Source: a virus
Taxonomy: Duplodnaviria > Heunggongvirae > Uroviricota > Caudoviricetes
Strand: one strand, 5' to 3'
Virus record (IMG/VR): IMGVR_UViG_2778261447_000008
Location: 1-13,187 of that record
Length of the DNA: 13,187 bases
Below the pieces are notes generated by a model. That model worked only from the letters and a program-made list of their open reading frames with translations, was not told the DNA's origin and did not search any database. A program made the position numbers and the translations under genes. Shown here piece by piece: positions 1-13,187 of this stretch (position 1 is the stretch's first letter; the number at the start of each line of letters is the position of its first letter).

Positions 1-266
1 CTAGTCTAAAAACTAGTATTAAGACTATCACTTATTTAAGTGATACTGGTTGTCTGGAGATTCAGGGGGCCAGTCTAACCGCCCTGCAATAATCGAAATA
101 TTAGAAACAACCACTACAACTGTGGAGGCGATGATCGCACATCTGAATAGTATCGATAGTATTTACCATGAACCGATTTACAAAGCGGTTTACGAGTGGG
201 CCGTAAAGATTTTCTATCGATGATACTTCGTTATCTTGCTGGCATTCACAATACCTTTACATACTA

Positions 267-893
267 ATGACATGCCAGCACAATACTGTCACTTACAACC
301 GTTCGGATTACCTAGAGAAAAGTATGATTCAGGATTTACTGATCGAAGCAATTAGTCACGATAGGATGCATAAAAAGTTAAATGAACTGAATTGCTACTT
401 CTACAATCGCAAACATGAAACTCAAATACGTGATGAGTTAGTTGTTATTCTCAATCAAATCAGCACACTAACTGCTTTAAGTGAGCATCCAAAACTCGGT
501 ATCGGCGCTGTTGACATATCACTTTATAACCAGTCGATATTAACGTCTGAACATAATGGCAATGTTGCAACCATCGAGATCAAACACCATTACCCAAAGG
601 ATTTACTTTATCGGCAAGTTCAAGAAGACATCATTTCCGATATTTCAAGAGTAATAGTTTCACCAACTACACATTTTATCCATATAATCCAGCAAAGAAC
701 TAGGATTAATACTCCTTCTTTTGGCCAAGTGAAATTCCTTGAACGTGATGCAAGTGATATCAGCACTTATGTGCAATGCCTTGAAGAGCTAAGTTCCTTC
801 CCCAGTATCTTTCATAAAAAAAGTATATGTATTGAGGTACTTGGTGAAATTATGTCGACATATACCTTTAACGTATATTCATTTGACAACTGA
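267..893 (+). CDS. hypothetical protein; AT-rich cargo (moron) gene convergent with the lysis cassette
   Basis: 208-codon ORF in the track. Codon usage is AT-rich, unlike the flanking phage genes. No family recognised. No Shine-Dalgarno before 267; the Met20 ATG at 324 is preceded by a purine-rich stretch (gagaaaag) and may be the true start. Confidence 0.45.
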   Translation: MTCQHNTVTYNRSDYLEKSMIQDLLIEAISHDRMHKKLNELNCYFYNRKHETQIRDELVVILNQISTLTALSEHPKLGIGAVDISLYNQSILTSEHNGNVATIEIKHHYPKDLLYRQVQEDIISDISRVIVSPTTHFIHIIQQRTRINTPSFGQVKFLERDASDISTYVQCLEELSSFPSIFHKKSICIEVLGEIMSTYTFNVYSFDN

Positions 894-914
894 TTAATTT
901 GACAATTTTATTGC

Positions 915-1172
915 TTAATGGTTAGTTCTCTCTGCATCTATTTTACGAATATCAGCTTTATCCCGATTGCAGTTAGCCAGTGCAGACAACAGACTCACAT
1001 TCAGCTCCAGGCTGGCACCATAAGTCAGAGGATTTGGTATGAACGGTACAGGTGTTTCAGAAGTCAGACTAGTCGGTAATGTTGTAGCCGGAGTGCTCAC
1101 GTAAACTGTCCGCGTACTTCCGCAACCGCTCAGCAGCGGCAGCAGGCACAAGGCGTGCAGCACAACCATCAT
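915..1172 (-). CDS. Rz1-type outer-membrane spanin lipoprotein (o-spanin)
   Basis: Track ORF 915..1238 in a different frame from Rz. Internal Met-Met (ATG at 1172..1170) is followed by a signal peptide with lipobox LLSG|C and a proline-rich mature part (PATTLPTSLTSETPVPFIPNP). It starts inside Rz and runs past the Rz stop. Confidence 0.6.
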   Translation of the reverse strand: MMVVLHALCLLPLLSGCGSTRTVYVSTPATTLPTSLTSETPVPFIPNPLTYGASLELNVSLLSALANCNRDKADIRKIDAERTNH

Positions 1173-1449
1173 CCGCAACAGCCACTTTGATATCTTTCTG
1201 GGTTCTCTGTGACTCCAGTGCGATCTGCTGTTTTGCATGCTGGTTAACCTCTATAACTGTATTGACGATTTGCAGTGATTGCAGGACGTTACGGGTAATG
1301 GCTGTTGCAGATTCAGCATTTTGTACAGCCTCATCAGCACGTTTCTTTTCGTGCTGATATTTGCTGTAGTAGTGGTTGGCAGACCAGATGAAAGAACCGA
1401 TGACAGTAAAGAAGAATGCAGCGATAACCAGCTTATAGCTCAACTTCAT
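1069..1449 (-). CDS. Rz-type inner-membrane spanin (i-spanin)
   Basis: 126 aa with an N-terminal transmembrane helix (LVIAAFFFTVIGSFIW) and a charged, coiled-coil-like periplasmic part. Sits directly downstream of the endolysin and overlaps the Rz1 frame. Confidence 0.7.
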   Translation of the reverse strand: MKLSYKLVIAAFFFTVIGSFIWSANHYYSKYQHEKKRADEAVQNAESATAITRNVLQSLQIVNTVIEVNQHAKQQIALESQRTQKDIKVAVADDGCAARLVPAAAAERLRKYADSLREHSGYNITD

Positions 1450-1909
1450 TTACCACCCCACCAGCCTCTTTAAATCGGGCAATCAGGTCACCGATTTTAT
1501 GTTCATACTGACCGTAACCTGCACCAGGTAACGACGCCCAGATATTGCTGCAACGGTCGATTGCCTGACGAATATCACCGCGATCAATCATCGGTAAAGC
1601 GCCACGCTCTTTAATCTGCTGCAATGCCACAGCATCCTGGCTTTTGGGAGAGAAGTCTTTCAGAGCAAGCTGCTTACGGTAGGCATCCCACCAGCGTGAA
1701 AGAAGCTGGTAACGTCCGGCGGCTGTTGATTTGAGTTTGGGGTTTAGCGTGACAAGTTTGCGAGGGTGATCGGAGTAATCAGTGAACAGTTTGCCACCAA
1801 CAATAACATCATAACCGTGGTTACGTGTCGGTTGTCGCCCGTTATCCGTTCCTTCTGACCAAGCCACCATATCAAGGAAAGCTTTACGCTGGGAATTTAG
1901 TACCTGCAT
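1433..1909 (-). CDS. R: endolysin, lambda R-type lytic transglycosylase
   Basis: The 158 aa translation is near-identical over most of its length to lambda R as I recall it (QRKAFLDM.AWSEGTDNGRQ.TRNHGYDVIVGG, GRYQLLSRWWDAYRKQL, DRCSNIWASLPGAGYGQ). Positioned between holin and Rz. Confidence 0.9.
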   Translation of the reverse strand: MQVLNSQRKAFLDMVAWSEGTDNGRQPTRNHGYDVIVGGKLFTDYSDHPRKLVTLNPKLKSTAAGRYQLLSRWWDAYRKQLALKDFSPKSQDAVALQQIKERGALPMIDRGDIRQAIDRCSNIWASLPGAGYGQYEHKIGDLIARFKEAGGVVNEVEL

Positions 1910-1912
1910 AAA

Positions 1913-2239
1913 TTACTCCTTAGAGCCACCAAATTTGTTACCGATTACTCGCATTGCAGCCCCACGAATAGCATCGACACCGATCAGCCCCACTCCACCA
2001 CCAATGGCAACAGATAGTGATTTAGGCCATCCGACATACTCAAGAGCGGATGCAAAAGTCAGCGTCAGAGCGCCACAGAGTAGAATTTCGAGTGTTTTTC
2101 GCTTCCAGCCACCACCACCGCCAAAATAGGCAATACGTAAACCAGCCATAACAATCGACATAATCACTGCGCCCAGCGGTGTGTCTCCACGCCACCAGCT
2201 CTGGACCAACTCCAACCAGGTATTTGGGTTATGAGGCAT
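1913..2239 (-). CDS. holin (three predicted transmembrane segments)
   Basis: 108 aa with three hydrophobic segments and a charged C-terminus. Stop lies 3 nt upstream of the endolysin start. First gene after a late-leader terminator. Confidence 0.7.
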   Translation of the reverse strand: MPHNPNTWLELVQSWWRGDTPLGAVIMSIVMAGLRIAYFGGGGGWKRKTLEILLCGALTLTFASALEYVGWPKSLSVAIGGGVGLIGVDAIRGAAMRVIGNKFGGSKE

Positions 2240-2377
2240 TTGTAGTTATCTCTCACCTCGCTGATACAGCAGGTGCAAATTGAGGAAACATCATGTACCG
2301 CAAATCAGAAGCGGAAACGTCAAAGAAGCCGAGTCAATGGATAACTGCGGGATAGGCCAGGACCAAGGAATCCCCAG

Positions 2378-2413
2378 ACCCAGAAACGACAAAACCCGCT
2401 CGATGGCGGGTTT
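2378..2413 (-). terminator. intrinsic terminator in the late leader (tR'-like), minus-strand sense
   Basis: Perfect 8-bp stem aaacccgc / gcgggttt (2392-2399 and 2406-2413) with a 6-nt loop. On the minus strand it is followed by ttttgtcgttt; the plus-strand side has only three T. Confidence 0.5.
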
Positions 2414-2420
2414 AAGCTGT

Positions 2421-2530
2421 GTGGCGAAGTGAGCACACTTAACAGATTACGATATTTTTTGCGTACGCGTTAGTGTTTTGATAGAATTTTCAGCCGCATA
2501 AAAATTCATTCTTATAATTCGGGATATATA
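2421..2530. promoter_or_regulatory. intergenic control region: candidate late promoter/qut on the minus strand and candidate cassette promoter on the plus strand
   Basis: Non-coding gap between the terminator hairpin and the cassette start. A perfect TATAAT lies at 2513-2518 (plus), 12 nt before the ATG at 2531, with no good -35. The minus-strand pR'-like hexamers could not be pinned down by eye. Confidence 0.3.
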
Positions 2531-3706
2531 ATGGATATAACTTGTTTAGAATGTGGCAATGTTCTTGACGACCCAACTGTAGCTTGCGATAAATGCGGTG
2601 CCACGCCTCATGTTGTAGTGCTGGGCAAACAATCGTACTTTCCTATTGGTGCTGTAACAGCAAATCTTGAAAAAAATGATTCAAGAGCATTTGATTATCG
2701 ATTAGGTGAAGTTTGGGATCTAAAAAATGAAGTCACATCTGAATTCATAACCAGAATTGAGAAAAAATTTAGCCGAAAAAACAAATTTCATAACTTCCTA
2801 GACTCAGATCACAACCCTTCATCCATTCCTACGATCCTAAAAAAATACATTAATAAAAATAATGAATTCATTGATTTATCTAGAGCTATAATAGAGAAGC
2901 TTAAACATAATGCTAATAACGAATCGAGAGTTGCCCAACTTCAGGGGGGGAGCGTTGTTTTCATCCACTATAAGTCTACCGAACCAGAGGATTTGGGGAA
3001 ACTTCTAATCGTAATGGTTGATAAACAAAGCGCCTATGACTTTGATTCGGATAAGTTGACCCCAACAAGATTAAATCCAATTAATACCGATGCCTTACGG
3101 CAGGCTGCGATGTTCGATTTAACTTTATTCGAAGCCAGTTATCCAGAAAACAAGGGTGACTCATATGTACATTTCTTGCAAGGTAAATCTAAAAGCGATT
3201 TTTTCAAAGACTCATTAGGTTGCCGACATGATTCGGACAATAAAAGAAGCATTCAGCAATTATTCAGTGCTATAGATATTTTTGCTAGTAAAAACTCACT
3301 CGGTCGTGTACTGCGTGATACTATTGACAATGAAGTTAAATCCTTACTGGAAAAAAAATCAAAAGATAAATACGGAAATAAGTCCGTTAAGATAGAGGAT
3401 ATTTCAAAAATAATTGACTCATGCCTGACTGATTCACACAAATGTAAGGGAACGTTTGTCGATTTTGTTAATCTTAATGGTTTCCAGATTGACCCTCAAT
3501 TTGAACCAACTCCTAAAGCAGCTGAAAGCGCGCTTACAATTGAAGTGGCAGATAACGACAATAATTTTAAGTTGAAAATAATGCGTGGAGCTATTGGAGA
3601 CGAAAAGTCAAATAAGCCTGTAATTCTCACTGACAACAAATGCGAAATTGTGATAAAATTGAGTCAGGCAAATTATGATGAACTCAAAAGATATAGAGAC
3701 AGCTAA
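2531..3706 (+). CDS. zinc-ribbon protein with NdpA/YejK (NA37)-like nucleoid-associated-protein region; first gene of AT-rich cargo cassette
   Basis: 391 aa. N-terminal Cys4 motif (CLECGN...CDKCG). The central region carries motifs I recognise from E. coli YejK/NdpA (GGSVVFIHY vs GGFVLFCHY; YVHFLQGKSKSDFFKDSLG vs [22 protein letters not shown]), recalled from memory. Very AT-rich. Confidence 0.6.
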   Translation: MDITCLECGNVLDDPTVACDKCGATPHVVVLGKQSYFPIGAVTANLEKNDSRAFDYRLGEVWDLKNEVTSEFITRIEKKFSRKNKFHNFLDSDHNPSSIPTILKKYINKNNEFIDLSRAIIEKLKHNANNESRVAQLQGGSVVFIHYKSTEPEDLGKLLIVMVDKQSAYDFDSDKLTPTRLNPINTDALRQAAMFDLTLFEASYPENKGDSYVHFLQGKSKSDFFKDSLGCRHDSDNKRSIQQLFSAIDIFASKNSLGRVLRDTIDNEVKSLLEKKSKDKYGNKSVKIEDISKIIDSCLTDSHKCKGTFVDFVNLNGFQIDPQFEPTPKAAESALTIEVADNDNNFKLKIMRGAIGDEKSNKPVILTDNKCEIVIKLSQANYDELKRYRDS

Positions 3707-3708
3707 TA

Positions 3709-4269
3709 ATGACAATTGCTGATGACTTATCAAGATTAGCGCAGATTATTAACGGAGCCTCAAGCAGAGTTGAGGGCTACTACACTGTCATAAGTCTTGA
3801 AGAAAGCATTGTTATTGTAAATAGTTCTGAAATAATTAGACTGTTACAATCTATAGGTTATAAAAAGGCAACAACCTGCATCGAAAATAATGAAATTTGG
3901 CTAGATCGCCAAGCTTCATCTTGGGATGACGCTATAATTTATGAGAATGTTGAGTCTTTTTGGTCTAGAGTAAACACCCAAAACGCTCTTCCGAAAAATT
4001 ATATCATCGGAACGCCGTTAATACTCCCTACTTCTAAGAATGAAAGCATCGAAAAAATCCATATTTTCTTTATGTGGAAAGATATCCTTTCATTAATTGC
4101 TGATCATCATAACAGTGACTGCTCTGTCTTATTTTTCACCAATGAAGACAAAAGTTATACAGTCGAACTCACGCATTTTTTACAATATAGCGAGATTAAT
4201 CGCTTATCGAACTCGTCTCTTAAATATGAAATTATAAAGGAGCTTCTCGACACAATAAAAAATCAATGA
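3709..4269 (+). CDS. hypothetical protein; second gene of cargo cassette
   Basis: 186 aa. The ATG overlaps the tandem stop codons of the upstream gene (taaTAATG), indicating translational coupling. AT-rich; no recognisable family. Confidence 0.55.
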   Translation: MTIADDLSRLAQIINGASSRVEGYYTVISLEESIVIVNSSEIIRLLQSIGYKKATTCIENNEIWLDRQASSWDDAIIYENVESFWSRVNTQNALPKNYIIGTPLILPTSKNESIEKIHIFFMWKDILSLIADHHNSDCSVLFFTNEDKSYTVELTHFLQYSEINRLSNSSLKYEIIKELLDTIKNQ

Positions 4270-4354
4270 TTTACACAAAAGCGAGCGCAAACTCGTTATA
4301 CGCTCAGCCATAAACGAAGTATTTAAAGCAAATGGTACGTTCAATTTCTTTGAC

Positions 4355-4924
4355 TTGCTTAACTCTACTGAACTCGTCAGGAAAAAATATGATGAACTAT
4401 ATGAGATTTACACAAAGAGGTTTTCTGTAAATAAAATTCTTAACGAACTCGATGAGAAAAATCTTGAGTTCACGAGTAAAATTAACGAATTCATATCATC
4501 TAATCAGACAAAAGCATTGACTATTCCCGGTGCATTAATAGCAGCTGGTGGCTTAGTGAAGGCTAATGAAACAACCGAAGCAATATTGATTATCGCAGGA
4601 CTTTGGATGATAAAAAAAGTCAATTACATTTCTATTGAGATATTCAATGAAACATTCGACAACTTACGTTCTCGAGTGGAGTCCGCTTTCGATAAGTATT
4701 TAAAGTTTGAAGAAAATAAAGAAATCAAAGATAATGCAGATAGTATTAAGAGTAGCATTACAGGTTTGATTGATAAAGCTAAAAAAAGGATGAGAACTGT
4801 TAAATATCTCGCATCAGCCATGTTTTATGGAGGCCTTATTTACGTTGGATATAAACAGTTCCCAGTCTTTTTTGAAAAATCGGCAGTAAATCTATTTTAT
4901 TTTTTATGCCATACTATAAGCTAA
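4355..4924 (+). CDS. small predicted membrane protein (two hydrophobic helices); third gene of cargo cassette; start codon uncertain
   Basis: 189-codon frame with hydrophobic segments ALTIPGALIAAGGLV...ILIIAGLWMI and YLASAMFYGGLIYVGY. The track start is TTG with no Shine-Dalgarno and there is no in-frame ATG before residue 84. A strong AGGA-N6-ATG at 4379-4391 is in another frame. The 3' end overlaps the Q 3' end by 21 bp. Confidence 0.45.
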   Translation: MLNSTELVRKKYDELYEIYTKRFSVNKILNELDEKNLEFTSKINEFISSNQTKALTIPGALIAAGGLVKANETTEAILIIAGLWMIKKVNYISIEIFNETFDNLRSRVESAFDKYLKFEENKEIKDNADSIKSSITGLIDKAKKRMRTVKYLASAMFYGGLIYVGYKQFPVFFEKSAVNLFYFLCHTIS

Positions 4925-5275
4925 CATTGCTAAACAGCCGTCAACAAACCCCATTGCAGTTTGCAGTTCCTTCCTAATTGTGCCATCAGAGCATTTTCTC
5001 TTCTTCGCAATAGTGCGTAATGAGATACCGATAACAAAGTGGGCGATGATGAGCTCATATTCCTCTGGTTTATACCTTCTCAACCGAGCCACACAACTGT
5101 CTATCATGATGCCTTCGTCATCATCACACTGAATCCGTGACTTTTTGCCATGAGGTAAAAGTCCCTTGAAACCAGCCGCTATCGGCTGCCAGTCCACTCC
5201 GCTATTGTCTGAAGCAGCCCAAGCTCCCCAACGATCCATTACTTCATACATATCACGCATCAACTTTCTCCACAA
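4904..5275 (-). CDS. Q: late-gene antiterminator Q (QuuD / phage-82-type)
   Basis: 123 aa with the motifs RWGAWAA, IAAGFKGL, KSRIQCDDD, C.ARL and CSDG.I.K.LQ that I recall from E. coli QuuD-type Q proteins. Last gene of the minus-strand early operon, upstream of the lysis genes. Confidence 0.8.
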   Translation of the reverse strand: MWRKLMRDMYEVMDRWGAWAASDNSGVDWQPIAAGFKGLLPHGKKSRIQCDDDEGIMIDSCVARLRRYKPEEYELIIAHFVIGISLRTIAKKRKCSDGTIRKELQTAMGFVDGCLAMLAYSMA

Positions 5276-5277
5276 AA

Positions 5278-6273
5278 TCAGGCCAGCACACCAATTGCCA
5301 GCGCACGATCGATAAAACGAAATATCAACTCCAGCTGGGAGCCATACTTCTCTTCAAATGCCACGGTATCCGCATGCAGCTCGTCGTGATGCTTTCTGCA
5401 CAAAGGCAACACAAAGAGATCATGCGCTTTTGTACCCATTCCCCCCTGACCGTGGCCTATCAGATGGTGGGGATCATCAGCAGGCTTTCCACAACATGCA
5501 CACGGCTGCGTCTTAACCCAGCGCGTGTACTTTTCATTAACCCAGCGGCGACGTTTTGGGCGTAACATAAAAGACTCCGGCGACTCCGGCTCCACTTTCA
5601 GCGCCAGCACCTTTTTCGCTTTATCCTGGATGATGCTGGTGGCAGGAACCGAAGGAACAAGGTCACTTTCCCGGGTGACAGACGGCACAACAGGCTTCGG
5701 TAATCTCAGTGCCTTACGGGCTGCACTTTCCGGTAAGGCATCCGCCAGGTCATTACGAACCAGCCACCAGCATAGTTCCGGCATTGTCACAACGTGACTA
5801 TCATCAAAACCGAGATCCCGACGCACAACAGACAATACCCAGCGGGCACAGTTATCCGTTGCCATTGATTCCAGCCGTTCCGTGAACTGATCGCGCAGCT
5901 GGTTATCGCAGTGCCAGCACAGACGGATTGCGCCCGGAGCGTGTCGCATTGTGGTCATGTTCTCGCTGTGCCAGTCGGAATGAGGCCACTGGCAGCCTTT
6001 TTCACGAAGTAACCAGCTTTCAAGACATTCCACCCCACCAGCACGACGGATCACTGTCTCATTGCGGAACACGGCCCGAACGGCAGGATCATCCGCCAGC
6101 GTTTGTGATGCCGCCGGAACGGCACCACTGGCAAAAGATGAATAACGTTCCGGCTCAGGCTCCAGCAGGACACGCCCCTGCATAAACAGGGGCATCAGCT
6201 CTGAACCTGGTCTGAACAATACGATCCCCATACGCGGGGCAATTTCAGGGGTCAGTAGCGCTCTCACGGTCAC
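5278..6273 (-). CDS. DUF968-family prophage protein with HNH-like Cys/His cluster (YdfU-like)
   Basis: 331 aa; the C-terminus carries CACCGKPADDPHHLIGHGQGG...CRKHHDELH. Typical nin-region position between KilA-N and Q. Tightly packed against both neighbours. Confidence 0.7.
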   Translation of the reverse strand: MTVRALLTPEIAPRMGIVLFRPGSELMPLFMQGRVLLEPEPERYSSFASGAVPAASQTLADDPAVRAVFRNETVIRRAGGVECLESWLLREKGCQWPHSDWHSENMTTMRHAPGAIRLCWHCDNQLRDQFTERLESMATDNCARWVLSVVRRDLGFDDSHVVTMPELCWWLVRNDLADALPESAARKALRLPKPVVPSVTRESDLVPSVPATSIIQDKAKKVLALKVEPESPESFMLRPKRRRWVNEKYTRWVKTQPCACCGKPADDPHHLIGHGQGGMGTKAHDLFVLPLCRKHHDELHADTVAFEEKYGSQLELIFRFIDRALAIGVLA

Positions 6274-6274
6274 C

Positions 6275-7084
6275 TCAATGAACGGTATCGAGCAGCTTTA
6301 ACAGCTCAGGGAATCGGGATTCGAAGAAATGCGGCTGCGTCTCGCGCGGATTTGCGGGACTGGTGATGTTCTTGCCGAACATGCAACCTTTCGCTGTCAG
6401 CGACCAGAATTTTTTGATGTTGTTAATCGCGGTACGGCTGTATCGTTCGCGCTGCTCGACGATCCCCAGTTTCACCATCTGGTGATATGCCTGATTAGCC
6501 GTCAGGCGTATACCATACTGTTTCAGCAGTGCGCTCAGTGACAGTGTCGGGCGACTTGAGCCATCGTGTGCATCAGCAGGAGCATCAATGGCATAGCGCG
6601 GTGCCAGATTCGGTAAGCCAACAGCCTCCTGGAGTTTCTGACAGGCACCAAGCACTGAAGAGTTAGACAGGTTTAACTCCCGGCGCATAAAGTCCAGCAG
6701 GATCACGCCAGCCTGCATCTTGTCAGCAGCCTGTCCGGATAATTTTTCCGGTGCGCTGGTTACCATATCGAAAGTACGGATCACCTTCAGATGGAATGAC
6801 GGGCTGATCCACATTGCATAGGCATACACCAGTTCCTTGCAGACATACGTTCCCCGTTCATTTCCCCCATGAATCACACTCACCGGGTCAACACCCAAAT
6901 TCTGGGTGTTGGTCAATTCATGAACAAGCTCAACAGTTTGTTGGCTGGAAAGAAACTTTCCCGGCTCCTTGGTTCTGGCATTTGCACCAGATGCTACTGC
7001 TGCGCGATGCAGATCGTTCAGGCTGTAACGCCCATAAGCATCACGACGAACTTCAATACCATCAATGACCATCAGATTATTCAT
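6275..7084 (-). CDS. KilA-N domain protein
   Basis: Starting at Met12 of the track ORF (ATG 7084..7082) gives an AAGGAG Shine-Dalgarno 9 nt upstream. N-terminal region (MVIDGIEVRRDAYGRYSLNDLHRAA) resembles KilA-N DNA-binding domains. Confidence 0.65.
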   Translation of the reverse strand: MNNLMVIDGIEVRRDAYGRYSLNDLHRAAVASGANARTKEPGKFLSSQQTVELVHELTNTQNLGVDPVSVIHGGNERGTYVCKELVYAYAMWISPSFHLKVIRTFDMVTSAPEKLSGQAADKMQAGVILLDFMRRELNLSNSSVLGACQKLQEAVGLPNLAPRYAIDAPADAHDGSSRPTLSLSALLKQYGIRLTANQAYHQMVKLGIVEQRERYSRTAINNIKKFWSLTAKGCMFGKNITSPANPRETQPHFFESRFPELLKLLDTVH

Positions 7085-7103
7085 ACTTCGTTTCTCCTTT
7101 TGC

Positions 7104-7493
7104 TCAGGCGGCTGCACCCGCCGTTTTCTCGTACTTACTGATAGTGATCTCGACCTTCCCTTCCGGGATAACCGGTCCCCACTCCACCAGCATTCTTTTC
7201 ACCTGACTGTCGTCTTCCCACACACCCGCGTGGGTCAGGGCGTCAAACAGTGCCTTGTTATAGTTGTCCAGATCGCGGATCCGGTTATCCGGAGGAAACA
7301 ACACGATCTCCACTGAAGCAGGTGCCGACGTTGGTTTCGGCAGACGACGTAACTGCTCAACTATTGCTGCGCACGCCGCGCTCTGGAATTTGCGCCCCGC
7401 CGCGCTTATCAGGCTCTTACCTGCAAACGCCCCTTTGTTGGGGTGTCGCCAGTACGTGTTCACGCTGAGCGGAAAAGGCCGGATCAGCTTCAT
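7104..7493 (-). CDS. rusA: RusA-family Holliday junction resolvase
   Basis: 129 aa with RDLDNYNKALFDALTHAGVWEDDSQV, matching the RusA catalytic-core pattern (RRDLDN...FDALT.AG.W.DD.QV). Confidence 0.85.
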   Translation of the reverse strand: MKLIRPFPLSVNTYWRHPNKGAFAGKSLISAAGRKFQSAACAAIVEQLRRLPKPTSAPASVEIVLFPPDNRIRDLDNYNKALFDALTHAGVWEDDSQVKRMLVEWGPVIPEGKVEITISKYEKTAGAAA

Positions 7494-7816
7494 ACTTTCA
7501 GGTCCCTCTCATGTAACCAGTGGGTTGCACGCAGCCTTGCGTTTTCCTCACCGGCAAGCAGTGCGCGGATAATCCCGACCGCCTCGCTGTCGTCGTCCTT
7601 CACCGCGGTATGAAGCGTTATCCCCCGGGCCACGCCACGCTTTATCGTGATGACGCCTTTTTTCTCCAGTGCGCGAAGATGCTCCACCGCTGCATTCACT
7701 GAACGGTATCCCAGCATGGTTGCCACCTCCTGATTGGTTGGCGGGAAGCCACGTTCTTTCTGATAAGAAATCAGCATATCCAGCACCTGCTGCTGGCATT
7801 GAGTTAACGTCGTCAT
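7490..7816 (-). CDS. LexA N-terminal DNA-binding-domain protein (no peptidase domain)
   Basis: 108 aa. Residues 1-70 align with the LexA winged-helix domain (QQQVLDMLISYQKERGFPPTNQEVATMLGYRSVNAAVEHLRALEKKGVI vs LexA [50 protein letters not shown]). No S24 Ser/Lys domain. ATGA overlap with rusA. Confidence 0.75.
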   Translation of the reverse strand: MTTLTQCQQQVLDMLISYQKERGFPPTNQEVATMLGYRSVNAAVEHLRALEKKGVITIKRGVARGITLHTAVKDDDSEAVGIIRALLAGEENARLRATHWLHERDLKV

Positions 7817-8466
7817 GCCGCCATCTCCCTGACCAGTTTTTCCGCCTGCTGGCGAACCTGCGCCAGAAACGCCTCACCACATGCCTCAAGTTCATCGCGC
7901 CCGATGTAGCTGATTGCCGGTCCCTTCCAGGTCTTATCGAAAACAGCAATAGCACCAGCGAAGAAAGCGCCTGTCGGCACCTGCTTCTCATCCTTCGGGA
8001 TAAACCAGGCAGGCAGTTCAAAACCAATACGCCCGCGAATAAAAGCAATATGATCTGCATCTTCCGGCCACCACACTTCGCTGGTGGCAGCTTTGATCAG
8101 GAAAACATAGCGCCCGCCCTTATCACGCATGGCACTGGCATGCTTCATGATGTAACGCATGCCAGTGATGTATTGCCCCTCATGCTGACTGGCGCGGCTG
8201 TATGGGGGATTACCAAAGGCAGCACCTTTAAGCTCCACAAGACGTTCTGACCAGTCATGCGCCAGCGCGTTGTCTTCCGCCGTGTAATACGCAGCACATT
8301 TGGCGTTATCACCATCAGTGAACAGATCCAGAACAAACGGGCCAAACAGGGTGTTAATTCCCCAGAAAATGTTATCCGGCGTGCGCCACTGATCGCCCAC
8401 TTCCTTCAGTTCATGGGCTGGTTTGTTCCGCAGTTCCGCCAGCGCCTGGCAATATTTATTACTCAT
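7813..8466 (-). CDS. phage DNA N6-adenine methyltransferase (Dam-like)
   Basis: NPPY catalytic motif (AAFGNPPYSRA). Start chosen at Met12 (ATG 8466..8464) because it overlaps the upstream stop as TAATG; the track ORF extends to 8499. Confidence 0.75.
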   Translation of the reverse strand: MSNKYCQALAELRNKPAHELKEVGDQWRTPDNIFWGINTLFGPFVLDLFTDGDNAKCAAYYTAEDNALAHDWSERLVELKGAAFGNPPYSRASQHEGQYITGMRYIMKHASAMRDKGGRYVFLIKAATSEVWWPEDADHIAFIRGRIGFELPAWFIPKDEKQVPTGAFFAGAIAVFDKTWKGPAISYIGRDELEACGEAFLAQVRQQAEKLVREMAA

Positions 8467-8960
8467 TAAGCCCCCACGTAATTCCCTGACAGATACCACT
8501 CTTCACCCGATGCCGCGCGCTTGCTGCTTTTCCGTAAGCACCGCTCACGACGCTCCAGAAAATTGTTTCGTTCTGGCTGGGAGTGGCTTTCACGGAATGC
8601 CGCCATCCACACCGTTGCAGCACGACGGTATAAGCCCCTGGACTCCAGTTCTTCCGCCTGGCGGGTCAGGCACAAAATCACCCGCGGGTCGTTAGTGCCG
8701 ACATAGAAATTGCGCACAGGTCTGGTTTCACGAACTGGTTGTGGTTCCGGATCCTGCGCTCTCTCAGTCAGGCGCGGGAAATGTCTGCGTGTATCTCCTT
8801 CACAACGGTGAGCCACACGCCCACTCTGACGTAACTTGCTTGCTGACTGCAGAACGTTCTGCCGTGAGTAACCTGCAAAAGCATCCGCAATGTCTCCGGA
8901 AGTACACCCCGGATGGGCTTCAATGAATTTCTGAACTTCATTCAAAAGACTCATAATCAC
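8466..8960 (-). CDS. hypothetical regulator with PerC-like motif
   Basis: 164 aa. The segment AEELESRGLYRRAATVWMAAF resembles the conserved PerC/Pch activator core (LE..GLWRRAA..W) as I recall it. Start overlaps the stop of the O-like gene. Confidence 0.45.
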   Translation of the reverse strand: MIMSLLNEVQKFIEAHPGCTSGDIADAFAGYSRQNVLQSASKLRQSGRVAHRCEGDTRRHFPRLTERAQDPEPQPVRETRPVRNFYVGTNDPRVILCLTRQAEELESRGLYRRAATVWMAAFRESHSQPERNNFLERRERCLRKSSKRAASGEEWYLSGNYVGA

Positions 8961-9898
8961 CCCCTGAATCCTGCAGGGATCTGGCTGTAGTCCACGTTGT
9001 CGTAACTGGCTTTGAAGTACGGGTCTTCGCGTTTTTCTGTGTACGTGCTGACGGACGGCGATAAGCGCAGGGAAAGCTCATCCCATTTTTCCCGCAACTT
9101 CGACGGGCTGAGCACGTTACGGCACCAGAACGGATCGCGGCTGACGCGGCTGTACATCTCGCAGATTTGTTTGTGAGTACGACCATCCTGCACACACATC
9201 AGGCGAATTTCGTTTGCCCAGGCTGTCCAGTTAGGTTCTTTGGGACGAACCACCTCGCCGTCACATTCGGCGGCCTGCTCGTACAGGGCGATGATTTTTT
9301 TCCAGAGCCACTGTGCGCAGGTCAAATCATCCTGCGTTCCCCACTGGCGATTTTTAGGGCTGAATACAACCGCATCAGGATAGCGAGTTAAAAAATCCTG
9401 TTCAGCCTTCTGCGTGTCCGGTTGCGAAGCGTCCGGACAAGAAGGTTTTTTATCTGACGGATCATGTTTTGATTTTACTGACGGATCCCCGCCAGATTCT
9501 GACGGGTGAAAACCCGCTTTTTTGCCAGATTTCGACGCATCAAATTTTGACGGGTCAGATTTTGATGCGTCAGATTTTGACGGGTCAGAATCTGACAGTT
9601 GAGAAAATGCCGCTGCCTGAAGCTTCGCAACGTTAAGCTGATAAACATTCGACGCATTGCGGTTACCCTGGCGACGCGCCTTACGCGTTAACCAGCCTTC
9701 TGCTTCCAGCCGTGCGATAGCCGTTCTGACGGTACTCATCCCCGCGCCAATCTGGCGGGCAATGGTTTCAATTGATGGCCAGCACACACCTTCGTCATTA
9801 CTGAAATCAGCCAGGCGGGCCATAATTGCCACGCTGGATAACTTCATGCCTGACGCAGCGCAACCATCCCATACATAGCCGGTTAATTTAGTGCTCAT
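8957..9898 (-). CDS. replication initiation protein (O-like) with N-terminal helix-turn-helix and an iteron-encoded linker
   Basis: 313 aa. The N-terminus (SIETIARQIGAGMSTVRTAIARLEAEGWLTRK) is a winged-helix typical of phage replication initiators. A low-complexity SDPSKSDASKSD linker is encoded by tandem DNA iterons, as in lambda O. Confidence 0.7.
   Translation of the reverse strand: MSTKLTGYVWDGCAASGMKLSSVAIMARLADFSNDEGVCWPSIETIARQIGAGMSTVRTAIARLEAEGWLTRKARRQGNRNASNVYQLNVAKLQAAAFSQLSDSDPSKSDASKSDPSKFDASKSGKKAGFHPSESGGDPSVKSKHDPSDKKPSCPDASQPDTQKAEQDFLTRYPDAVVFSPKNRQWGTQDDLTCAQWLWKKIIALYEQAAECDGEVVRPKEPNWTAWANEIRLMCVQDGRTHKQICEMYSRVSRDPFWCRNVLSPSKLREKWDELSLRLSPSVSTYTEKREDPYFKASYDNVDYSQIPAGFRG
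9493..9600. repeat. replication-origin iterons (tandem ~15-bp repeats, consensus CAGATTTTGACGGGT) inside the O-like gene
   Basis: Seven head-to-tail copies read directly: cagattctgacgggt, cagatttcgacgcat, caaattttgacgggt, cagattttgatgcgt, cagattttgacgggt, cagaatctgacagtt, plus tgacgga-type degenerate copies at 9448-9484. Confidence 0.65.
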
Positions 9899-9907
9899 GA
9901 CCGACCT

Positions 9908-10246
9908 CTATTTCTCTGAATTTACGACGAAACTGTTCGAGCGGGCTGAAGCACTCATGCTCATAGCCTTCGCGGAGGTAGATAACCCGTTGTGTTTCCG
10001 GCTCCCAACGAATGACTCTGACGGGTACTCCGTAGTGATCTTTGAACCAGCGGTTAACTTGTCGCAAAGGACTGTCTCCTTCTGCCGGTTGAAATCACCC
10101 ACAGCCCACTCTGCAAAGCTGTGGGTTACAATTTCCCTGTCACCTGGTACATTCACTGCATAGCAATATTCCACCTTCGCTTTTCCACCCGGTACAGGAA
10201 GCGCAATCAGTTGCGAGCGACGGTAGTGTGTTGTTAAACTGTTCAT
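9908..10246 (-). CDS. hypothetical protein, translationally coupled between the CII-like and O-like genes
   Basis: 112 aa. Its ATG overlaps the upstream stop as ATGA (10246..10243) and its stop lies 10 nt before the O-like start. No family recognised. Confidence 0.5.
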
Positions 10247-10812
10247 GCGTTAGTTTCTCCACAACCAGAAGCAATCGACGCCACGACGCCCGGAGCTGCA
10301 CACTCGCGGGCGTCATTACTTTCTGAAATGCAAAAAATTTTGTAGACCAGTGCTGCATGCTCCTGCAGCTTCGAAATTGAGAGATACAGCTCGTCGTTAA
10401 TTGCTGTCTTCTCATGCGGTTCCACTACACCGTCTTCGATTGCTGAACGAATCTGTTTTGAATAACTGCCGATCTGTTCAATGACTTCCAGCAGACGCTG
10501 GTTAATATCGGCGTTGTCCACATCCTCGACGTCAGGAAGAGACACAAAGACGCCATTTGTAGACTGCGCCACAGCATCAGCAATGAAGTGAGTGCCACCA
10601 GCACGCTGTAAAACCATTGCCCATCCCAGCGGGAAAATCTGATCGCCATCTGCACGAAGGCGGTTGAATAAAGCGTTTTCTGTTACATCGAGCCAGTCAG
10701 CCGCTTCAGCGTAACCACCCGGCAACGCCGCGATAGTTTTTCTGACAGCTTTCACGTACCACTCAGGCTGTTTTTCTATTTTCCAGTGATGCTTACCCAC
10801 GATTAGCCTCAT
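10243..10812 (-). CDS. putative CII-type regulatory protein (family assignment tentative)
   Basis: 189 aa, second gene after cro, in the position of lambda cII. Weak resemblance to CP76-type phage regulatory protein CII (L.N.L motif region). Not lambda CII itself. Confidence 0.45.
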
Positions 10813-10843
10813 CGTTCTGTGGTTAAAAATTGAAAGTGTTCTG

Positions 10844-11044
10844 CTAATCTTTCGGATAGATATCCGGTCTTAAGTCAGATTTCGTAATTGCACCTGACGT
10901 GCATTGCTCAAGTTTTTTAGCCAGCACAAAACTGGCTTTTTTATAGCCATTGAAAACCAGCCGTAAGTAGCCAGGTGTTGAGCCAACTTTTCCGGCCAAC
11001 TCGCCCTGCTGTTCTTTGGTTAAAGAGTCCCAATACGCTTTCAT
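10844..11044 (-). CDS. cro: Cro/YdaS-like helix-turn-helix regulator
   Basis: 66 aa from the ATG at 11044..11042 (MKAYWDSLTKEQQGELAGKVGSTPGYLRLVFNGYKKASFVLAKKLEQ), divergent from cI. The track ORF extends upstream into the operator region, which is implausible. An alternative start is at 11068. Confidence 0.65.
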   Translation of the reverse strand: MKAYWDSLTKEQQGELAGKVGSTPGYLRLVFNGYKKASFVLAKKLEQCTSGAITKSDLRPDIYPKD

Positions 11045-11047
11045 ACG

Positions 11048-11119
11048 ATATGTACCTACGGTGTACATATTACATGATTGAAATGAACCTTCAAGATACT
11101 TGTACCTTAACGGTACAAG
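11048..11119. promoter_or_regulatory. oR-like operator/promoter region between cro and cI
   Basis: Two palindromes: ATATGTAC-N7-GTACATAT (11048-11070) and CTTGTACC-N5-GGTACAAG (11099-11119). Candidate cro promoter on the minus strand: -35 TTGAAG (11094..11089), 16-nt spacer, -10 TAATAT (11072..11067). Confidence 0.55.
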
Positions 11120-11134
11120 GGTTTTAATTTCGTT

Positions 11135-11809
11135 ATGAAAACAATCCATGACATCCGGCGGTCTAACGCCAGAAAACTGAGAGATGGTGTTGGCGGGAAT
11201 TCTTCCTTTGCCACTATGATTGATCGCGAGCCAACCCAGACCAGCAGGTTTATGGGAGATGGTGCTACTAAAAATATCGGTGACAGCATGGCACGACACA
11301 TCGAAAAATGTTTCGACCTGCCTGTCGGATGGCTCGATCAAGAACACCAGACAACGAACATCACAAAAAAACCTGATGTTTCAATCACTAATAAACAAAT
11401 CACATTAGTCCCTGTCATATCATGGGTACAGGCCGGAGCATGGAAAGAAGTTGGATATTCTGAGGTTGATTTGAGCACAGCAGAAACGTATCCCTGCCCT
11501 GTACCCTGTGGGGAAATGACTTATATCTTGCGGGTGATAGGTGATTCAATGATTGATGAGTACCGCCCGGGAGACATGATTTTTGTCGATCCTGAAGTAC
11601 CTGCCTGCCACGGTGACGACGTTATTGCATTGATGCACGATACAGGTGAAACCACCTTCAAAAGGTTGATAGAAGATGGGACACAGCGTTATCTCAAAGC
11701 GTTAAACCCAAACTGGCCTGAGCCTTACATTAAGATCAACGGTAATTGCTCTATAATTGGAACTGTGATTTTCTCAGGAAAACCAAGAAGATACAAAATC
11801 AAAGCCTAA
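11135..11809 (+). CDS. cI: CI-type prophage repressor (helix-turn-helix plus S24 LexA-like peptidase domain)
   Basis: The C-terminal domain closely parallels lambda cI (PVISWVQAG..., GDSM serine motif, TFKRL lysine, ALNPNWPEP vs lambda LNPQYPMIP). The N-terminal DNA-binding domain is divergent, implying a different immunity specificity. Confidence 0.85.
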   Translation: MKTIHDIRRSNARKLRDGVGGNSSFATMIDREPTQTSRFMGDGATKNIGDSMARHIEKCFDLPVGWLDQEHQTTNITKKPDVSITNKQITLVPVISWVQAGAWKEVGYSEVDLSTAETYPCPVPCGEMTYILRVIGDSMIDEYRPGDMIFVDPEVPACHGDDVIALMHDTGETTFKRLIEDGTQRYLKALNPNWPEPYIKINGNCSIIGTVIFSGKPRRYKIKA

Positions 11810-11821
11810 TCAATGTTTATG

Positions 11822-11846
11822 AACCTGCTTCGGCAGGTTTTTTTAT
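11822..11846 (+). terminator. intrinsic terminator downstream of cI
   Basis: Hairpin aacctgc-ttcg-gcaggtt (11822-11839) followed by a run of T (11838-11845), 13 nt after the cI stop. Confidence 0.6.
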
Positions 11847-11848
11847 AC

Positions 11849-11876
11849 TTGACAATGTACCTTTGAGATACATAAT
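11849..11876 (+). promoter_or_regulatory. pL-like strong sigma-70 promoter with overlapping operator
   Basis: Consensus -35 TTGACA (11849-11854), 16-nt spacer, -10 CATAAT (11871-11876). The spacer holds ATGTACCTTTGAGATACAT, which matches the oR palindrome at 14 of 19 positions. Confidence 0.55.
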
Positions 11877-11986
11877 GTACCCAAGAGAAACAACAAACAG
11901 GCAGGACGCCCACGAAGTAGCCGCCTGGGGCATATGAAGTCCAGGATGATTCGTTAGCAACAAAAAAGCGCCCTACAGGACGCTTA

Positions 11987-11998
11987 GCTCTTTAACAA
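11987..11998 (+). promoter_or_regulatory. boxA-like antitermination element (rrn-type)
   Basis: GCTCTTTAACAA matches the rrn boxA core (TGCTCTTTAACAA) at 12 of 12 positions. It sits in the leader about 110 nt downstream of the pL-like promoter, preceded by a small stem-loop (aagcg...cgctt, 11966-11985). Confidence 0.4.
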
Positions 11999-12043
11999 TC
12001 TGGTCCCCATCAACAAGTAACTGATAACTTGAGGAGGTGTGAA

Positions 12044-12250
12044 ATGCACAAAACAGAACCAAAAATCGTCGCGCCCGGATACACAAATGAGGAAATTTAC
12101 GAGTGGATGGCAAAGAAGCTGGCAGCTATAAACCAGCTTCGTGAAGTGCTGTCTTATCGACAGGTAACAATAGACTCCTTAAAAAAACTGGATCAGGAAA
12201 TCACGGTTTTATCACAGGATGTTACTTTAGATATTGTGCAGACAAATTAG
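12044..12250 (+). CDS. small hypothetical protein, first ORF downstream of the pL-like promoter
   Basis: 68 aa from the ATG at 12044, with a strong Shine-Dalgarno GAGGAGG (12031-12037) 6 nt upstream. Not arginine-rich, so not an N-like antiterminator. The track ORF starts 15 nt earlier at a TTG. Confidence 0.55.
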   Translation: MHKTEPKIVAPGYTNEEIYEWMAKKLAAINQLREVLSYRQVTIDSLKKLDQEITVLSQDVTLDIVQTN

Positions 12251-12656
12251 GATCCCATTCATTTTCGTCAAAATCATCAAAGTGATGAATTTGTGATCTC
12301 CAGTCTCGATAATCTAAAAATTTCTGGGCGGTTACGCTTATTTTATCAAGCGTGAGTTCATCCTGAATTGAAAGAAGAAGTTCATCAAATTTCATCTCAT
12401 TAATCTGTTTTGGCATCCAGTGATGCTTCATCAGAATAAGGTGAACCAGAGCTTTTTTCCCATTCAACTGATTATAGGGAGTACCGAATTTCTTCCGGTG
12501 CTCATGTAAGACAAGGTCCAGAAGAGTAAGTAATGTTGCCCTTGATTCAACTTTGCTTATTTCGACTGATGACACTACCCCACTGATTTCAATGCCCCGA
12601 TACTTTCCAACATTTTCACAGTGGGATTTGTACAGCGTATAGATATTACCGGACAT
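12222..12656 (-). CDS. hypothetical protein; AT-rich cargo gene in the immunity region
   Basis: 144-codon ORF with an ATG start, AT-rich. Convergent with the pL-proximal gene, with 29 bp of 3' overlap. No family recognised. Confidence 0.5.
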   Translation of the reverse strand: MSGNIYTLYKSHCENVGKYRGIEISGVVSSVEISKVESRATLLTLLDLVLHEHRKKFGTPYNQLNGKKALVHLILMKHHWMPKQINEMKFDELLLSIQDELTLDKISVTAQKFLDYRDWRSQIHHFDDFDENEWDPNLSAQYLK

Positions 12657-12672
12657 TTCTTTTCCTTTTGCG

Positions 12673-12723
12673 TTGTTGGGGATAACCAGATTAACCGAAT
12701 CCTTGTTGTTGGGGAATAACCAG
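12673..12723. repeat. pair of 17-18-bp direct repeats upstream of the 12222..12656 gene
   Basis: TTGTTGGGGATAACCAG (12673-12689) and TTGTTGGGGAATAACCAG (12706-12723), differing by one inserted A and 33 bp apart start to start. They lie 17-70 bp upstream of the ATG at 12656. Confidence 0.5.
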
Positions 12724-12940
12724 GTCCACCTCGCCTGATGTGGCTAAAAGCAGGCACATAACAGCTAAGTATTTTCAACCAGAGAGAATCCTTAGCGTTG
12801 TGGTGAATGCGGCTCAGCGCACGCGGGTTAAGGTTGAGGCTGACAGTCGACCTTCTGTGGATACCCACCCGTCTGGTGTGCAACCTTCGCCAGGCACCGG
12901 GAGGCACCCGGCACCACAACTTTATGCTGTGTGTAGTCTT

Positions 12941-12987
12941 GACGGTACCAGTTTGTACCCTTGCTTCCGGCTGGTACCGTCCTTTTT
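12941..12987 (+). terminator. strong hairpin with T-tract (candidate intrinsic terminator or structured RNA 3' end), plus-strand sense
   Basis: Perfect 11-bp inverted repeat GACGGTACCAG (12941-12951) / CTGGTACCGTC (12971-12981) with a 19-nt loop, followed by CTTTTT (12982-12987). Confidence 0.4.
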
Positions 12988-13187
12988 ACAAAACAGAGAA
13001 GAGCATCACCGGACGACGGGCTCATAACCCAATCCATCCAGGCGGCAGTCATCGCAGGTGTTCTTCTCTGTTTTGTGGAGAAACTAACCGACCTTGCAGG
13101 GTCGATATGCTGAAGTGGTCAACAAAAACTGGCCACCGAGTTAGAGTTTTTTCCAGTATCGATTTTCCGATTCGTTTGGTGGTAACC

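Follow-up and report, generated by a model that had tools for sequence, protein, structure and literature searches.

What is a single AT-rich gene, read against the lysis genes and lodged between them and the packaging genes of a lambdoid prophage, likely to do? The gene in question lies near the left end of the window, by which we mean the whole stretch of 13,187 nucleotides that was analysed (IMG/VR record IMGVR_UViG_2778261447_000008, positions 1 to 13,187). A first-pass annotation had described it as an orphan of 208 aa in the position of lambda bor, and as a candidate single-gene defence or host-interaction factor. The reading that we favour, at a probability of roughly 0.5, is that it is a moron for a stand-alone nuclease of the PD-(D/E)xK fold, which would protect the lysogen by cutting incoming foreign DNA.

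The window belongs to an Escherichia coli prophage of the lambdoid, SfV/SfIV/e14-like kind. Its lysis genes match those of SfIV, SfII and SfV at 91-93%, and the whole arrangement is also found in E. coli 2014C-3338. In phage order, which follows the minus strand of the window, an early region with cI/cro-like and replication genes, an intact gene for a Dam-like methyltransferase, RusA, KilA-N, DUF968 and Q is followed by a cargo island and then by the holin, endolysin and Rz/Rz1 genes. Two plus-strand genes (111 and 189 aa) come next, the second of which is the subject of this study, and after them HNH, the small and large terminase genes, head genes and Mu-like tail genes. The cargo island between holin and Q, which is AT-rich as well (34.8% GC), encodes a DS-1 anti-phage system. 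Its first ORF matches the NCBIfam model DS1_1_antiphage (nucleoid-associated, YejK/NA37-like) with 451 bits at a cut-off of 330; two further ORFs match positions 1-143 and 175-337 of the DS1_2_antiphage profile in different frames, so that a frameshift or stop near 4270-4354 seems to have split DS1_2. In sister prophages the Q-to-holin slot holds other cargo in each case and is a variable cargo hotspot (Table 1).

An ORF of 208 codons, counted from its first ATG, does run from 267 to 893 on the plus strand, convergent with the lysis genes, and the distance of 21 bp given in the first-pass annotation between its stop and that of Rz1, whose frame ends at 915 on the minus strand, proved exact. 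No terminator-like hairpin is found in this spacer. The AT-rich composition was likewise borne out, with a GC content of 0.356 at 324-893 versus 0.487 in the lysis genes and 0.502 at 4925-13187. When the region between the neighbouring genes (224-914) was shuffled 5,000 times, the longest ORF averaged 54 codons and reached 141 at most, versus the 208 observed. Pairwise dN/dS is 0.10-0.19 (dS 0.04-0.18) among 38 distinct E. coli alleles, which represent 58 full-length copies, and about 0.11 versus homologues at 68-70% protein identity. The gene at 324-893 is real and under purifying selection. The strength of this selection, together with 127 related protein clusters, rules out a spurious ORF in AT-rich DNA. 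Broken copies also occur. In three IMG/VR contigs (L062, L063 and L064) the gene stops after codon 38 and is followed by an IS3-family element and rearranged terminase/HNH copies, and in one prophage (L034) it is frameshifted; these cases point to occasional decay of the gene.

The true start is most likely the ATG at 324, giving a protein of 189 aa, rather than that at 267. The RefSeq annotation of the identical locus begins there (WP_000613841.1), the profile phrog_12494 aligns over its full length (1-189 of 189) to residues 20-208 of the long ORF (E = 1.7e-127), and the homologues of other genera all begin with MIQ or MIH at this position. Between E. coli lineages whose coding regions are about 4% different, the 57 nt that separate both ATGs differ at 7 positions, a divergence some three times that of the coding sequence as counted from the alignment, and this stretch is probably an untranslated leader or promoter rather than coding sequence. 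It overlaps a promoter-like element, and a weak candidate Shine-Dalgarno tract lies close to the downstream ATG (Table 1). In a scan for promoters and terminators, matches were found only at or below the level expected from shuffled sequence; the upstream stretch with the promoter-like element is nevertheless kept in two prophages (L007 and L031) despite a different upstream neighbour. Homology between E. coli lineages with different upstream neighbours starts about 125 bp 5' of the ATG at 324, and the gene therefore carries its own upstream DNA. An Rfam search of the whole window returned no RNA family.

Table 1. Features of the window and of loci compared with it (positions are those of the window unless a locus number, L, is given).
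Feature	Position	Strand	Remarks
Terminal 77 nt of an insertion sequence	1-77		breaks the 111-aa gene near codon 63
3' remnant (about residues 64-111) of the 111-aa cargo gene	78-223	+	WP_001089762-like; cut off by the insertion sequence
Promoter-like TTTACA-17 nt-CACAAT	256-284	+	consensus match only; overlaps ATG 267; corresponds to L001 15027-15055
5' extension of the maximal ORF	267-323	+	outside the RefSeq coding sequence and the PHROG profile; absent in homologues of other genera; faster divergence
Purine-rich tract AGAGAAAAG	314-322	+	weak Shine-Dalgarno candidate just 5' of ATG 324; kept in all aligned E. coli lineages
Coding sequence, candidate 189-aa stand-alone PD-(D/E)xK-type nuclease	324-893	+	identical to RefSeq WP_000613841.1; phrog_12494
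K30-H31-E32 (AAA CAT GAA)	411-419	+	start of core helix 30-46; E32 is the proposed first acidic catalytic residue
D64 (GAC)	513-515	+	start of strand 65-68; 'D' of PD-(D/E)xK; invariant
E85-I86-K87 (GAG ATC AAA)	576-584	+	strand 80-89; 'ExK'; E85 and K87 invariant
Spacer from the nuclease-gene stop to the facing Rz1 stop	894-914		21 bp, TTAATTTGACAATTTTATTGC
Lysis cassette	915-2239	-	Rz1 915-1178, within the Rz frame; Rz 1069-1449; endolysin 1433-1909; lambda-family holin 1913-2239
DS-1 cargo island	2531-4924	+	DS1_1 2531-3706; DS1_2 parts 3709-4269 and 4355-4924
Dam-like methyltransferase gene	7816-8466		intact
111-aa gene and homologues	L001 14659-14994; L081, L084 5001-5333
Q-to-holin cargo of sister prophages	L001 17328-20480		1,050-aa metallophosphoesterase
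	L006 8003-10748		DNA methyltransferase and hypothetical genes
	L007 8248-9659		KwaB-like pair
	L009 2405-4324		transposase and hypothetical genes
Lamassu pair	L005 118-3018; L055 2710-5610; L056 2823-5723
PDC-S45	L046 2175-3068
Entry for the Yersinia frederiksenii prophage	L002 5514-6697, 7080-7802, 8602-9222
Truncated nuclease gene copies	L062, L063, L064 around 6001-6114
Possible tandem paralogues	L077 616-1164, 1219-1767		metagenomic contig
Gene for P0151	L088 7001-7936

The predicted protein has no hit in Pfam, NCBIfam or PADLOC, and neither the protein nor the family profiles gave a usable match in sequence searches of the PDB. The words 'orphan' and 'no recognisable family' were nonetheless overstated, since the protein is a member of phrog_12494 and of a family with no fewer than 127 clusters, Bacteroidota and Acinetobacter included, and carries a PD-(D/E)xK motif and predicted fold. 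An exhaustive profile search of 1.84 billion representatives retrieved 42 clusters at E <= 0.001, and a profile made from these 42 reached 127, mostly of 190-215 aa and from Bacteroidota and other phyla. The larger set also holds Acinetobacter proteins of about 310 aa, several of them with a precomputed DUF6508 hit. These are among longer relatives of 284-316 aa (P0144-P0147, P0151, P0155 and P0166), in several of which DUF6508 (PF20118) is precomputed beside the nuclease domain, including P0166, the only one named Acinetobacter baumannii; P0151 (311 aa, Acinetobacter halotolerans) has no Pfam family on record and a housekeeping neighbourhood. On one metagenomic contig, the gene for P0034 (182 aa), a distant member of the family, is preceded by an unannotated gene for another 182 aa, possibly a tandem paralogue.

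When 33 members (20-70% identity) are aligned, just six positions show no variation, namely K30, E32, D64, E85, K87 and D93, and another six (N28, R36, E54, P56, D106 and Y180) are nearly invariant. The AlphaFold2 model (pLDDT 83.8, pTM 0.84) contains a helix at 30-46, strands at 50-53, 65-68 and 80-89, a helix at 97-107 and a strand at 117-127, and thereby reproduces the alpha-beta-beta-beta-alpha-beta topology of the PD-(D/E)xK core. D64, E85 and K87 supply the conserved D...(D/E)-x-K of the second and third strands of the core and E32 the acidic residue on the first helix; these four are predicted to bind the metal and to act in catalysis. Among distant members, a few have Pfam hits below threshold, namely to HSDR_N (2 of 33, best E = 1.4e-4), PDDEXK_9 and DUF234, one member has a precomputed PDDEXK_4 hit (PF14281), and one is named 'Restriction endonuclease' in UniRef. 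Profile HMMs of Pfam and NCBIfam place the window protein in no curated family of the PD-(D/E)xK clan, and Foldseek found no significant match in the PDB or BFVD. From motif and modelled fold, the window protein is probably a nuclease of the PD-(D/E)xK type.

Of 5,426 complete E. coli genomes, 80 carry the gene, and in 75 of these the match covers >=80% of its length at 95-100% identity; it is also found in 54 IMG/VR prophage contigs. Searches with tblastn gave no match in 50,697 deposited phage genomes and one truncated fragment only in plasmids. Homologues at 60-72% identity occur in Yersinia, Pectobacterium, Citrobacter, Enterobacter and Klebsiella, and at about 50% in Proteus. All prophages inspected have the gene between the lysis cassette and the HNH or small-terminase gene, on the strand opposite to both; in the window it follows Rz/Rz1 directly. 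In close relatives the interval between Rz1 and HNH is empty (about 290 bp in SfIV and 190 bp in vB_EcoM-720R4), and the gene is therefore an insertion, a moron, in agreement with the earlier view of it as cargo convergent with Rz/Rz1. In a prophage of Yersinia frederiksenii (L002), the homologue lies between two genes that lack annotation, one for 240 aa (upstream, opposite strand) and one for 206 aa (downstream, same strand), for neither of which a Pfam or PADLOC match was found; genes nearby, by their motifs, may encode a ParB-like nuclease and a Mom-like DNA-modification protein.

The company that the family keeps bears on its function. In three Proteus prophages the nuclease homologue stands beside a Lamassu pair (LmuA, E = 1e-148; LmuB, E = 9e-237). 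The pair, whose LmuA has a Cap4-nuclease domain, is placed between the homologue and the HNH/terminase genes. In another prophage (L046) the homologue shares the same slot with an adjoining gene for PDC-S45, a trypsin-like candidate defence protein, and in others the slot holds other small genes. The slot between lysis and terminase genes behaves as a hotspot of cargo and defence genes, and because it holds anti-phage systems elsewhere, the gene is a reasonable defence candidate. The Tai immunity genes of lambdoid phages also lie 'upstream of the packaging module' (PMC11364771). Among distant homologues, that of Tamlana is situated on an integrase-bearing element between Kiwa (KwaA/KwaB) and a cluster of type I restriction-modification, Fic and Abi_2 genes; one metagenomic homologue has a WYL regulator, cpYpsA, SocA and PDDEXK_2 as its neighbours, and another distant one adjoins an AAA_15/AAA_21 ATPase. 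Several further homologues lie in housekeeping neighbourhoods. The family thus recurs beside known defence systems and in mobile-element hotspots, and its neighbourhoods are suggestive of a role in defence. Of the two functions initially proposed, defence is therefore plausible by association (with Lamassu and PDC-S45 in the slot, and with Kiwa and type I restriction-modification through a distant homologue).

Could the gene act with a partner? The most obvious candidate is the upstream gene for the 111-aa protein, which accompanies the nuclease gene, adjacent and co-oriented, in most E. coli copies, and whose acidic product could neutralise the nuclease as the immunity half of a toxin-immunity pair. 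We consider such a pair most improbable. In three prophages (L007, L031 and L032), an unrelated minus-strand gene stands in place of the 111-aa gene and the nuclease gene is intact. In the window, the first 77 nt are the end of an insertion sequence, which we take to resemble the left end of IS2, and homology to the intact locus L001 starts at base 78, so that the 111-aa gene is destroyed here and the 189-aa gene untouched. The same end occurs in 4,676 of 5,426 E. coli genomes, at 20,752 sites altogether, and adjoins a transposase pseudogene in the example examined; its junction with the 111-aa gene is in no complete RefSeq E. coli genome. Homologues of the 111-aa protein (68-76% identity) are encoded alone in the lysis-terminase slot of other phages, with no nuclease homologue, and the nuclease homologues of other genera have different neighbours. 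The 111-aa protein, which has no match in Pfam, PADLOC or NCBIfam and is likewise encoded antisense in the slot, forms a small Enterobacterales family of its own. We have rejected it as an antitoxin, an immunity protein or any other partner: the slot holds two cargo genes that are independent of each other, and the earlier description of the nuclease gene as a single-gene unit holds. A methyltransferase would be the other conceivable partner, the nuclease then being the cutting component of a type II restriction-modification system that has been split, with its methyltransferase encoded elsewhere, by the Dam-like gene or near the holin. The best structural matches are indeed orthodox type II enzymes of similar size, the Dam-like gene is intact in the window, and a methyltransferase gene lies upstream of the holin in three prophages (L003, L006 and L053). 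However, L007 has an intact nuclease gene alongside a Dam-like gene with a frameshift, and the holin-proximal methyltransferase and the nuclease each occur without the other. The copies in E. coli, Yersinia and Proteus prophages have no adjacent methyltransferase, and 9 of 10 contexts of distant homologues have none nearby, the tenth holding a type I system complete with hsdM/hsdS/hsdR, for which an additional nuclease is superfluous. As no cognate methyltransferase was found to be adjacent or strictly co-inherited, and as the Dam-like and holin-proximal candidates both failed, a split system is very unlikely.

If the gene acts alone, it might serve itself, the phage or the host. As a selfish, free-standing endonuclease of the homing type, it would cleave the lysis-terminase junction of phage genomes without the gene, and repair by recombination would then copy it in. 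PD-(D/E)xK homing endonucleases exist, and homing would explain the recurrence at the same junction, the presence/absence polymorphism at one junction among near-identical prophages, and a single AT-rich gene with its own flanks and no fixed partner. We nevertheless regard it as unlikely. The spanins and terminases flanking the gene in Yersinia, Citrobacter and Proteus phages have no detectable similarity to those of E. coli, so that no common homing target site is evident across genera; many members of the family are chromosomal, outside phages; and the unrelated cargo in the same slot, defence systems included, fits a permissive module boundary better. Service to the phage's own lytic cycle or recombination, for instance in the breakdown of host DNA or the resolution of branched structures, appears quite unlikely, given that in each of the Enterobacterales prophages examined the gene runs antisense to the late operon, that fully functional relatives do without it, that it is absent from the deposited phage genomes, and that the prophage already has RusA. 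A host-interaction or virulence factor in the manner of bor, as the first-pass annotation had also entertained, is, like the spurious ORF dismissed above, hardly credible. Besides the AT-richness, what speaks for it is the gene's position and orientation, which are the same on the lambdoid map as those of lambda bor; we take the place of bor, downstream of Rz/Rz1 on the opposite strand, to be equivalent to this slot and the analogy to be fair, and bor, like presumably the gene of the window, is an independently transcribed cargo gene. Bor, however, is a small outer-membrane lipoprotein. The N-terminus of the window protein, MIQDLLIEAISHDRMHKK, is not hydrophobic, neither a lipoprotein signal peptide nor a cysteine lipobox was found, no Pfam profile was hit, that of the Bor family included, and the modelled protein has a globular nuclease fold, predicted to be cytoplasmic.

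The defence nuclease, by contrast with these alternatives, is favoured by a gene that is real and under selection, by motif and modelled fold, by a conserved position, by the lack of a fixed partner and by co-location with known defence systems. From these we infer nuclease activity, a DNA substrate, expression in the lysogen, a defence role and self-sparing by antisense transcription, which could fit together as follows. The moron, a self-contained unit of one gene and some 125 bp of upstream DNA, sits between the lysis cassette and the HNH/terminase genes, and the prophage would express from the moron's own promoter, in the lysogen, a cytoplasmic, probably dimeric and metal-dependent nuclease that attacks incoming DNA, of phages or from other foreign sources. 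Since neither a methyltransferase nor an extra sensor domain is present, self would have to be told from non-self by the substrate, such as modified or structurally unusual DNA, by activation on infection, or by tight control of expression. The gene is antisense within the Q-dependent late transcript, and no terminator separates it from Rz1, so that late transcription could silence it: on induction, it would collide with the nuclease transcript, produce antisense RNA and shut the gene off, which could spare the phage's own DNA. Going further, and only tentatively, the gene may be the founder of an uncatalogued family of single-gene defence systems, in which a minimal PD-(D/E)xK nuclease of about 190 aa restricts superinfecting phages with no methyltransferase, antisense read-through from the Q-dependent late promoter acts as the switch for the own prophage, and members are used in prophage slots and defence islands across Proteobacteria and Bacteroidota.

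Should it prove active as a defence nuclease, the protein would add a very small, methyltransferase-free effector of the restriction type to the defence repertoire of prophages, and the junction between Rz1 and terminase in SfV/e14-like and other lambdoid prophages would be a second cargo hotspot besides that between Q and holin. Being so small, it would lend itself well to the study of how a minimal nuclease discriminates between self and invader, and the gene is a worthwhile candidate for the bench.

How, then, does the protein compare with systems already known? It would act in the manner of a small type II-style or solitary defence nuclease. It is uncharacterised and lies outside the curated families and catalogued defence systems: the anti-phage models of PADLOC-DB 2.0 and NCBIfam, DS-1 to DS-42 included, give no hit at E <= 1, and its RefSeq accessions were not found in the literature or in the supplements and tables of DefensePredictor (PMC13092281). 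Orthodox type II enzymes with the PD-(D/E)xK fold (R.SwaI, 5tgq; BglI; EcoRV; BamHI) share 13-18% identity with it and no HMM relationship, and unlike the window protein they have a cognate methyltransferase. HSDR_N, the nuclease domain of type I R subunits that also occurs in small solitary proteins, is of the same superfamily, whereas the window protein itself has no HSDR_N hit and no helicase or motor partner. Another parallel is offered by DefensePredictor, which lists 13-14 PD-(D/E)XK systems among DS-1 to DS-42 and places 21% of its uncharacterised predicted defence genes in prophages (PMC13092281). Compared with these nucleases, the window protein is smaller than most, has no accessory domain and matches neither the DS-x models of NCBIfam nor PADLOC. 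As in the single-protein nucleases of that set, however, an accessory gene encodes a PD-(D/E)xK core with no methyltransferase. Solitary PD-(D/E)xK nucleases are the commonest domain among newly validated defence genes of E. coli (PMC13092281), and the window protein, which overturns no current view, thus belongs to a kind that is already known.
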